A DNA stretch of 64,000 nucleotides from Patescibacteria group bacterium (lineage in GTDB: Bacteria; Patescibacteriota; WWE3; JAUXAW01; JAYEID01), in NCBI GenBank assembly GCA_034659915.1, contig JAYEID010000010.1, forward strand, positions 660 to 64,659, written 5' to 3'. A program made the position numbers and the translations under genes. A model generated the notes under the pieces. That model was not told where the DNA came from. It was given only the letters and a program-made list of their open reading frames with translations, and ran no database searches. This document shows positions 15,850 to 15,985 of the stretch, piece by piece. Each line of letters starts with the position of its first letter. Position 1 is the first letter of the stretch.

Positions 15850-15985
15850 CCCCGACATCCAAAACCGACTTCGTCGGTTTCCGTCGGGGCAGGCCTTGAC
15901 GAGAACTATTTTTTTTTAGTTCAATATGTCAGGGTGCCCCGTAGGAAGCGTTCTTACGCTTTGTGTTAGGGAGCAATTTCCGGAG
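15850..15985 (+). repeat. tRNA-3'-adjacent cassette: nested hairpin, promoter-like TTGACG...CAATAT, then GGGTGCCCCGNAGGAAGCG leader-like element
   Basis: 95 nt identical to 16359-16453. Related copies at 35285-35408, 43873-43993, 57325-57445. Confidence 0.7.

Follow-up and report, generated by a model that had tools for sequence, protein, structure and literature searches.

A REP-like nested palindromic unit directly after the CCA of tRNA genes in a Patescibacteria lineage: a tentative tRNA 3'-boundary element

Correia/NEMIS elements of Neisseria and BOX elements of Streptococcus pneumoniae are modular intergenic repeats whose inverted ends pair in the transcript, leading to RNase III cleavage or altered mRNA stability, and some of them carry promoter-like hexamers. 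Work on RNase III and such elements is among the literature cited in PMC3733652. Repetitive extragenic palindromic (REP) sequences, together with bacterial interspersed mosaic elements (BIMEs) and the hairpin-forming REP doublets termed REPINs, are short imperfect palindromes arranged in mosaics of alternating orientation and in inverted doublets, with several sub-families (PMC3733652; PMC8049555); they lie at the 3' ends of genes and between co-directional genes, their inverted pairs fold as two small hairpins or one long hairpin, and they are transcribed and thought to act as RNA (PMC3733652). In Methanopyrus kandleri, the palindrome CGTTA-N9-TAACG is located about 10 bp past roughly half of the tRNA genes and has been proposed as a 3'-maturation signal (PMC5217627). 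The present study concerns a repeat cassette at tRNA 3' ends in a 64,000-nucleotide stretch of contig JAYEID010000010.1 (the window), from an uncultured bacterium of the candidate phyla radiation (Patescibacteria). The cassette is a mosaic, specific to this lineage, built from the single palindromic unit CCCCGAC-AU(A/C)CA-[7-8 bp inner hairpin]-CC-GUCGGGG, and represents a REP-like repeat without a described family, REP, BIME and REPIN elements being the closest kind. Its first stem-loop (SL1) is followed by zero to two further units (SL2 and SL3), usually inverted and more diverged.

SL1 is a nested hairpin, CCCCGACAU-[inner hairpin]-CCGUCGGGG, present at five loci of the window as six units. 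A search of the window with the pattern CCCCGACAT-N10-40-CCGTCGGGG, controlled by 100 dinucleotide-preserving shuffles, returned five matches, against none in the shuffles; these correspond to exactly five occurrences of CCCCGACAT-N(21-22)-CCGTCGGGG, all on the + strand, at 15850, 16359, 35285, 43877 and 57325, the sixth unit being a tandem one at 57368-57407. The tRNA genes predicted by ARAGORN end at 15849, 16358, 35284 and 57324, so that SL1 begins at the very next base (CCA+1), and the copy at 43877 lies directly 3' of a CCA at 43874-43876. A preliminary description of this DNA had placed the module after the encoded CCA of four tRNA genes and of an RNA candidate, which holds for the five loci and their position, but the fifth copy starts at 43877 rather than 43873. 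No further full SL1 copy was retrieved from the window by a covariance search with filters off. Since the copies at 15850 and 16359 are one recent duplicate (108 nt, 95% identical), the window contains four independent sequences rather than five.

Covariance-model searches covered 22 sources totalling 296 kb, among them contigs that encode homologues of leucyl- and arginyl-tRNA synthetase (LeuRS, ArgRS) or NusG, together with L075 and L109, obtained through a pattern scan of a genome collection. Full + strand matches with E < 1e-8 number 13, and each has its first base at CCA+1 of a tRNA or tRNA remnant; of the two remaining + strand matches, one is clipped by a contig end and the other is a tandem second unit. 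In the sampled DNA, SL1 is tied absolutely to tRNA 3' ends, and the first unit always points the same way as the tRNA. In at least five related metagenome-assembled genomes (MAGs), SL1 lies at CCA+1, after tRNA-Arg, tRNA-Trp, tRNA-Met and tRNA-Tyr, and also upstream of leuS. It follows tRNA-Arg in L075 (ArgRS 77% identical) and in L173 and L174 (ArgRS 69%), tRNA-Met in L109, tRNA-Trp in L182 (NusG 92%; new inner stem AAGUUGC-UUCG-GCAACUU) and tRNA-Tyr in L187, L188 and L189 (NusG 74%), where the inner stem is AAGCUGA/UCAGCUU, the first outer pair has changed from C-G to U-A, and SL3 comes next with no second part. In L180 (LeuRS 65%) the cassette is located upstream of leuS, with SL1 clipped by the contig start and the remainder and SL3 present. 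The genome-collection scan pattern (CCACCCCGRCAT..CCGYCGGGG) was too degenerate (R/Y), yielding mostly chance matches in G+C-rich coding DNA and, among the 120 listed matches, two true relatives (L075 and L109). The pattern CCCCGACAT-N14-30-CCGTCGGGGCNNGC gave 22 matches in JGI metagenome contigs, all due to chance in G+C-rich coding DNA, and a pattern scan of IMG/VR gave 25, likewise all chance.

Stem halves are present twice per cassette (CCCCGAC / GUCGGGG / CCYUGRC / GUYRGGG), which can therefore form a pair of nested hairpins side by side or a four-way junction with a closing stem of 12-14 bp; for SL1 plus SL2, fold predictions differ among copies in this respect, and covariation does not discriminate between the two. 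The derivation of all parts from one unit is established by cross-matches of the models on opposite strands and by a direct alignment. The SL1 model matches the opposite strand at 6215-6253 of L075 (35 bits) and at 43958-43994 of the window and 8873-8913 of L187 (28 bits), the SL3 model matches every SL1 on the opposite strand (21-27 bits), and the second part of L075, reverse-complemented, reads CCCCGACATACAGA-[other inner hairpin]-TCTCGTCAGGG. The second and third parts are thus diverged versions of the first in inverted orientation, a relationship that the preliminary description had missed, and SL3 was found inside cassettes only across the 296 kb searched with its model. The inner-stem variants form a few discrete types, A1-A3 (UUC(G) loop) and B1-B3 (CAGA loop), which recur across loci and genomes: B1 follows tRNA-Arg, tRNA-Trp (as the tandem unit) and tRNA-Met, and A1 occurs in the rRNA operon of the window and upstream of leuS in L180. 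A given cassette has one subtype in both its SL1 and its inverted SL3, as in L187, where ATCCAAAGCT..GCTTCC is found in both.

All units of the window lie on the + strand. In the rRNA operon, an A1-type SL1 occupies 15850-15889, at CCA+1 of tRNA-Ile(GAT) (15772-15849), with inner stem AAACCGAC/GUCGGUUU and loop UUC (57 bits). It is followed by SL2 at 15894-15934, an inverted SL1-like unit matched by the SL1 model on the minus strand (CCUUGAC-GAG-[AACUA..UAGUU]-CAAUAU-GUCAGGG, with TTGACG at 15896), and by SL3 at 15935-15975, a second inverted and more diverged unit (UGCCCCGUAGGAAGCG..GCUUUGUGUUAGGGAGCA; 58 bits) whose 3' strand is partly degenerate. The duplicate A1 unit at 16359-16398, at CCA+1 of tRNA-Ala(TGC) (16282-16358), is followed by an SL2 at 16403-16443 identical to 15894-15934 (TTGACG at 16405), and an unrelated hairpin at 16445-16470 takes the place of SL3. 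After tRNA-Ala(CGC) (35210-35284), SL1 of variant B3 (35285-35323; 55 bits) has an intact outer and a degenerate inner stem, and SL3 at 35354-35394 (63 bits) keeps its pairing through G-U substitutions and ends 14 nt before the leuS ATG at 35409, which bears out the earlier statement that this copy runs into leuS; the SL3 upstream of leuS is also conserved in L180. The gene itself lacks a recognisable Shine-Dalgarno sequence, and UUUACAACARAUUAUG stands directly after SL3 in both the window (35395-35411) and L180 (165-181).

The fourth locus begins with SL1 of variant B1 at 43877-43915 (GAGUUGG/CCAACUC, loop CAGA; 66 bits), the ortholog of the units after tRNA-Arg in L075 and L173. Its inverted SL2 at 43920-43955 (CCCUGGC..GUUGGGG) contains four G-U pairs, and the 3' strand can alternatively close a 12-bp stem with the 5' strand of SL1; SL3 at 43956-43996 (UGCCCCGCAGGAAGCG..GCUUUGUAUUGCGGGGCA; 62 bits, and 28 bits as a minus-strand match of the SL1 model) lies 42 nt upstream of tRNA-Pro(CGG). 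With the units at 15935-15975 and 35354-35394, this confirms that the third element exists in three copies. At the fifth locus, SL1 of variant B2 at 57325-57363 (GAAUCGG/CCGAUUC; 64 bits), at CCA+1 of tRNA-Trp (57250-57324), precedes the tandem B1 unit at 57368-57407 (42 bits), whose 5' strand is degenerate (CCCUGAAAAUACA), and a degenerate inverted SL2 at 57411-57453 (UCUUGAC-GAG-[GACC..GGUUC]-..UUUCAGGG), with TTGACG at 57413 and TACAAT at 57439.

The segment between the intact tRNA-Arg(CCT) and the hairpin at 43877 (43756-43876, 121 nt) had been named as an RNA candidate at 43758. A new RNA gene is ruled out, as Rfam gives no match to the segment and its last bases, GCGGCGACTCCTGCCTGGGGCACCA, are those of an L075-type tRNA-Arg(CCT), of which the T-arm 3' side, acceptor strand and CCA remain (43852-43876, + strand). 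The intact tRNA-Arg of the window is of the L173 type, and in L173 the hairpin is directly 3' of tRNA-Arg. The segment is a tRNA gene remnant, and looks like the result of gene replacement or of the decay of a tandem copy. Its first 96 nt are strongly structured and match nothing.

The folds of the cassette copies are strongly non-random, with z-scores from -3.4 to -7. Across eight distinct SL1 sequences, 98.2% of cells are paired and two-sided changes affect 6 of 14 pairs (five of the seven inner pairs and one outer pair), a covariation score reached by none of 500 shuffles, and sliding the partner by 1-3 columns lowers pairing to 23-52%. In the six SL3 sequences, 95.8% of cells are paired; 5 of 16 pairs have changed on both sides, and two G-U pairs never vary. 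Covariation extends beyond the source genome, as seen in the new inner stems of L182 and L187 and the changed outer pair of L187. The inner stems quoted in the preliminary description were found as given and are complementary, except that the 35285 copy is broken, with two of seven positions unpaired; the loop GGCAGACC, described as constant, is shared by the units at 35285, 43877 and 57325 and by the tandem unit, but not by the two rRNA-operon copies, which have another inner hairpin with loop UUC. The outer stem and the junction bases of SL1 are invariant in sequence, beyond mere complementarity. After tRNA-Arg, SL1 differs by at most one position among the window, L075 (a loop substitution) and L173 (a one-base loop insertion), against 72-74% identity in the flanks (P about 1e-4), and bases 1-44 of L180 equal 15852-15895 of the window, though LeuRS is just 65% identical.

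These changes had been taken as evidence of selection on RNA structure rather than plain duplication. Covariation does support selection on a folded single strand over plain duplication; the changes are mostly from one Watson-Crick pair to another and therefore fit a hairpin read as RNA or as single-stranded DNA, so that RNA itself is not singled out, a single-stranded DNA hairpin giving the same pattern. On the + strand, SL2 and SL3 are more stable than their complements by 5-13 kcal/mol because of G-U pairs (-20.3 kcal/mol as transcribed versus -8.0 kcal/mol for the complement in the leuS-proximal SL3), the SL2 of L180, with no difference, being the exception. With SL1 favouring the opposite strand and the GC skew of the genome as a confounder, the comparison is ambiguous and, for SL2 and SL3, no more than suggestive of selection on + strand RNA.

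Nine tRNA genes were predicted in the window by ARAGORN, all on the + strand and every one with an encoded CCA, and they sit within operons; tRNA-Ala(CGC), for instance, begins 3 nt past the obg stop codon, and leuS starts 124 nt past the tRNA. Given this embedding, the cassette would be transcribed as a tRNA 3' trailer, and we tentatively regard it as a transcribed 3'-boundary, processing or insulation element for operon-embedded tRNAs, at somewhat less than an even chance. The trailer would fold into two or three stable hairpins, SL1 leaving just the discriminator and CCA unpaired between the acceptor stem and its own 7-bp G+C-rich stem. The unpaired NCCA would fix the endonucleolytic cut between CCA and the following C, and the cutter may be an RNase Z-type enzyme acting after the encoded CCA, or RNase III, for which inverted units would pair into a long stem. 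Once cleavage has occurred, a stem flush with the new 5' end and the G+C-rich SL3 would insulate the downstream RNA, and the hairpins would keep trailer sequence from pairing with the tRNA. To our knowledge, tRNA maturation in Patescibacteria, with their long co-directional operons and reduced RNase sets, is essentially unstudied. A processing or termination role at the tRNA 3' end is plausible, and the lack of variation in the outer-stem sequence is suggestive of a protein that recognises it. There is precedent for enzymes whose cut falls exactly 3' of an encoded CCA (PMC7479834).

A more specific version of this proposal, which we consider unlikely, is that the nested hairpin is an encoded tRNA 3'-end signal, cut at the 5' edge of the 7-bp stem by an endonuclease or by the RNA itself; candidates for the endonuclease are an unusual RNase Z, a new enzyme, or RNase P, for which the hairpin would mimic a minihelix. 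If so, CCA-3'OH would be released without exonuclease trimming or CCA addition, amounting to a maturation route specific to a reduced-genome lineage and a bacterial analogue of mitochondrial 'tRNA punctuation'. An invariant covarying hairpin at CCA+1 offers a testable handle on tRNA 3'-end formation and tRNA/mRNA separation in these bacteria.

More distant relatives add to the positional argument for a boundary element. L170 and L172 lack the SL1 unit and have a different nested-hairpin module directly after the CCA of the same tRNAs, so the presence of some structured module at CCA+1 is positionally conserved; L175 and L177, still more distant, showed neither SL1 nor the other module. This second trailer family starts +1 or +2 after CCA and consists of a stem-CUUAACGAG-(hairpin)-CGAGUUUAG-stem followed by GAGUGUC and by a further hairpin, ACCCRUAGC..GCGAAGGGU. 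It is found at 56960-57030 of the window after tRNA-Thr(GGT), after two tRNAs in L109 (from 5155 and from 7120), in L170 (from 9863) and in L172 (from 9418, and from 17919 on the minus strand). Its CGAG/CGAG could form tandem G-A pairs; the family has no Rfam match and is more widely spread among the relatives than that of SL1.

Several observations weigh against a boundary role. The unit is carried by five of the nine tRNAs of the window, and what lies downstream of the cassettes varies (mRNA twice, tRNA twice, 23S rRNA once), so that one common downstream benefit is not obvious. The tRNA-Tyr gene has the unit in L187 and lacks it in the window, and such presence and absence among relatives resembles a mobile repeat. 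Because of an A/C-lined internal loop, the + strand form of SL1 is weaker than its complement by about 3 kcal/mol, and the G-U excess of the + strand could stem partly from strand mutation bias (GC skew about 0.25) rather than selection. A stem starting at the scissile bond could hinder RNase Z. Finally, the data set is small, with about eight distinct SL1 sequences from six or so genomes, and transcription, cleavage and termination of the cassette are all things we infer from the DNA. It is unusual for an element to abut CCA exactly and to be so invariant in sequence; the distribution is narrow, and the function, read from sequence, is putative.

Several of these features would also be expected of a selfish, REPIN-like repeat, that is, of inverted doublets copied by a RAYT or IS200-IS605-type single-stranded DNA transposase, or by another recombinase, and inserting directly 3' of tRNA genes; any effects at the RNA level would then be incidental. 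We judge this possible, though less probable than a boundary function. The mosaic of one unit in both orientations is as in BIMEs and REPINs (PMC3733652; PMC8049555), SL1 and the inverted SL3 are of the same subtype within a cassette, identical variants occur after different tRNAs and in different genomes, and presence differs among relatives, for example at tRNA-Tyr. Hairpins read as single strands typically show the kind of imperfection that persists here, A/C on one strand against G-U on the other. In addition, the bare palindrome CCCGAC-N2-6-GUCGGG occurs at non-tRNA sites, with four cases in the window against 0.015 expected (48920-48975, 55740-55753, 56418-56432 and 19457-19474), and others at 7164 in L109, 450 in L182 and 8132 in L185. 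Past a wecG-like gene, it forms the inner hairpin of a nested hairpin, AACCCCAGUACC..GGUACGGGGUU, conserved at 5415-5475 of L187. On the other side, the open reading frames (ORFs) scanned in the window and the Pfam annotation of the relatives' loci contain no transposase or RAYT, the upstream sharing is limited to NCCA, far too common for exclusive targeting of tRNA genes, and neither target duplications nor element ends accompany the units. The orientation of the first unit is constant, and SL1 is better conserved than adjacent coding DNA at orthologous sites. The two explanations are compatible, as an origin by duplication may have been followed by functional retention; the repeat probably spread by duplication between tRNA trailers and was retained by selection. 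A REP-like family bound to one positional class bears on the question of selfish versus domesticated repeats.

The comparison with described repeats supports a REP-like nature. The cassette shares with REP, BIME and REPIN elements the imperfect palindromes repeated in both orientations and in mosaics, the inverted doublets and sub-families, the location at gene 3' ends between co-directional genes, the choice between two small hairpins and one long one, and presumably transcription. It differs in that its unit is a hairpin within a hairpin, its copy number appears low, the nested form is found solely at CCA+1 and in one orientation, there is no GTAG tag, and no RAYT gene was seen in the scanned ORFs or annotated loci. 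REPs exist in many copies across extragenic regions, whereas the 296 kb hold full units only at tRNA 3' ends or in cassettes. Assignment to the CGTC-tagged REPs was set aside, as the polarity of tag and tail in the cassette appears reversed with respect to that of these repeats. The SL1 unit contains CGTC inside its 3' strand and CCA or ACA before the inner stem. Members of the CGTC-tagged superfamily (PMC3733652) look similar in having CGTC, a CCA tail, a loop of 4-5 nt and a stem of 7-9 bp whose first pairs are A/T. Correia/NEMIS and BOX elements differ in having terminal inverted repeats, target duplications, hundreds of sites and no link to tRNA ends. The M. kandleri palindrome is likewise lineage-specific and at a fixed position after many, though not all, tRNA genes, but it is archaeal, a simple hairpin and of unrelated sequence, and it lies 10 bp from the tRNA instead of abutting CCA. 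A search of the whole window against Rfam release 15 at gathering thresholds identified rRNAs and tRNAs only, and a permissive search (E up to 10) of 43670-44040, 15760-16640, 56100-57560 and relative L172 gave no match in the cassettes. Covariance models of SL1 and SL3 could be used to annotate MAGs, preventing the units from being misread as promoters or small-RNA genes.

Two further ideas about the repeat were rejected. A role of CCCCGAC as a DNA-uptake sequence was dropped, the heptamer occurring just 7 times per strand in 64 kb and mostly within cassettes. A phage or island attachment (att) site is contradicted by the conserved host genes that follow the cassettes in synteny and by the chance nature of all IMG/VR matches, which leaves no phage link; the only duplicated tRNA 3' end is the remnant at 43852-43876, upstream of the unit.

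The preliminary description had also read the segment TTGACG...(C/T)ACAAT as promoter-like, which leads to a different account, namely a hairpin terminator or processing site coupled to a promoter for restart (TTGACG..TACAAT) and to a leader of the gene that follows. We find this distinctly unlikely. TTGACG is indeed present in three of the five copies (15896, 16405 and 57413 only), but a consensus scan detected no sigma-70-like site on the + strand of any cassette, and the promoter claim is not sustained. The proposed -35 is absent from the copies at 35285, which lacks the segment, and 43877, which has CTGGCG in its place, as well as from L075, L182 and L187; the spacers to the proposed -10 measure 18, 18 and 20 nt, whereas a sigma-70 promoter would have 16-18 nt in every copy, and the second position of the proposed -10 is not the conserved A. 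The hexamer is accounted for as a stem half, being the 5' strand of the inverted unit, which pairs with CGUCGGGG or GUCAGGG. Better promoter candidates are TTGATT-17-TAAAAT upstream of tRNA-Arg and, as promoter or 5' untranslated region (5'UTR), another repeat directly upstream of obg and secE (33967 and 57472). This repeat is 79 nt long (..ATTCGTAG..TATACCTTAATTATTCGTAG..), recurs at 33967-34045, 55407-55485, 55531-55609 and 57472-57550, reaches to or close to the start codon of obg (34064) and that of secE (57549), and from its sequence is a candidate shared promoter/5'UTR.

As to termination, G+C-rich hairpins close what are possibly independent tRNA units, with a promoter-like TTGATT-17-TAAAAT upstream of tRNA-Arg that is conserved in L075, a short AUUU or GUUU follows SL3 in several copies, and similar nested hairpins stand after a protein-coding gene (window 48941, with an ortholog in L187). 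Nevertheless, a terminator scan detected no hairpin plus U-tract at SL1, and its calls within cassettes were partial SL3 inner stems only (15940 and 35355), no more than shuffles give; with no U-tract, the hairpins are not canonical terminators. The likeness to intrinsic (Rho-independent) terminators is confined to G+C-rich hairpins at a gene end, the cassette being nested, invariant in stem sequence and present twice in the rRNA operon, where termination would be harmful unless overridden.

Conservation of sequence beyond the needs of pairing could also indicate that a piece of 95-150 nt, from SL1 to SL3, persists after tRNA release as a stable small RNA acting in trans. Functional tRNA spacers are known, for example E. 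coli 3'ETS-leuZ, and stable small RNAs usually have a hairpin at either end. However, the invariant sequence lies in stems only, single-stranded loops and linkers vary among copies, the composition of the cassette differs by locus, and no target or chaperone is known, which makes this very unlikely. With 3'ETS-leuZ and MALAT1/mascRNA, the cassette has in common a tRNA-adjacent or tRNA-shaped RNA that is used after processing or directs a 3'-end cut; it differs in giving no sign of a trans role or of RNase P cleavage, and the weak mascRNA matches in Rfam fall on real tRNAs, not on the cassette.

The zero spacing to CCA in all copies, the constant length of the 7-bp outer stem and the possibility of folding SL1 and SL2 as a closing stem of 12-14 bp with three hairpins are all in keeping with a dedicated cleavage element, in which SL1 or the SL1-SL2 four-way junction would act as a self-cleaving ribozyme or imitate an RNase P substrate, with cleavage at its own 5' edge giving CCA-3'OH in one step. 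RNase P and ribozymes resembling that of hepatitis delta virus (HDV) do cleave at the 5' edge of a helix. We nonetheless hold this to be extremely unlikely, because no Rfam ribozyme was matched at E up to 10 and the known folds fail. A hammerhead, brought to mind by CUGACGAG, was rejected, its core being incomplete: some copies have CUGACGA, but CUGUAU or CAAUAU follows stem II, with no GAAA. An HDV-like fold, suggested by a possible P2 (AUACA/UGUAU) and by the 7-bp stem that begins where the cut would be, fails on its P3/L3/P1.1 geometry, since P3/L3 requires a short stem with a longer loop and P1.1 cannot form with an inner hairpin of 7-8 bp and a 3-5 nt loop; moreover, L187 lacks the P4 and P2 parts of such a fold. 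RCCA is absent after the closing stem. The junction is not required either, because L187 has SL1 and SL3 without SL2.

The LeuRS of the window is 100% identical to an NCBI protein from a MAG labelled Patescibacteria group bacterium; the next nearest LeuRS is 66% identical, and further matches are to Microgenomates/Woesebacteria. The window has a G+C content of about 41%, nearly all of its genes on the + strand, and a GC skew of about +0.25 over 60 kb whose sign flips near 60000, matching the one-directional GC skew and strand trait reported for UBA1400 Microgenomates (PMC7143001). Its rRNA operon was located with Rfam models (16S at 13148-15458, 23S at 16629-20025 and 5S at 21290-21405) and carries insertions in which ORFs for LAGLIDADG endonucleases are found. 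At 2311 nt, the 16S gene encloses a LAGLIDADG_2 ORF (14222-14878), its best model being the archaeal small-subunit rRNA (964 bits). The 23S gene, of 3397 nt, contains internal repeats (16861-16976 and 17068-17183) and a segment, 17572-17650, that resembles 20925-21003; a LAGLIDADG_1 ORF lies just past the 23S match (20090-20557).

Partial 3'-half duplicates of the preceding tRNA (Thr, Trp) stand after the intact gene in L185 (7066-7160) and L187 (8675-8745 and 9615-9700), in both of which they are preceded by a TACTGGGATAAAC-like motif, and a similar motif is found in the window after tRNA-Thr(TGT) (56296-56350), with a D-arm fragment upstream (56131-56150). GIY-YIG endonuclease ORFs are present in this tRNA cluster in L185, L186, L188 and L189, and together with the partial duplicates they suggest endonuclease-driven turnover. 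A 5' leader, GGGRUCCCGMAGUUCUARGCAA(AUUUUUGAU), occurs directly upstream of tRNA-Thr(TGT) (56190-56220) and tRNA-Trp (57219-57249), with an equivalent in L182 (24-53), located after the tail of another cassette. A 43-nt hairpin repeat, CUCAAAUUCUCGGAAGAGUUUGAUG..CAUUGAG, is found in the rRNA spacer (16170-16212) and in the tRNA cluster (56372-56414 and 57098-57140). Intergenic tandem heptamers (TAACTAG, AAATACT, AGTAGTA, CAATCAG and similar) occupy 33806-33896, 46709-46813, 55300-55390, 59699-59775 and other sites, and are reminiscent of the short tandem heptamers of filamentous cyanobacteria.

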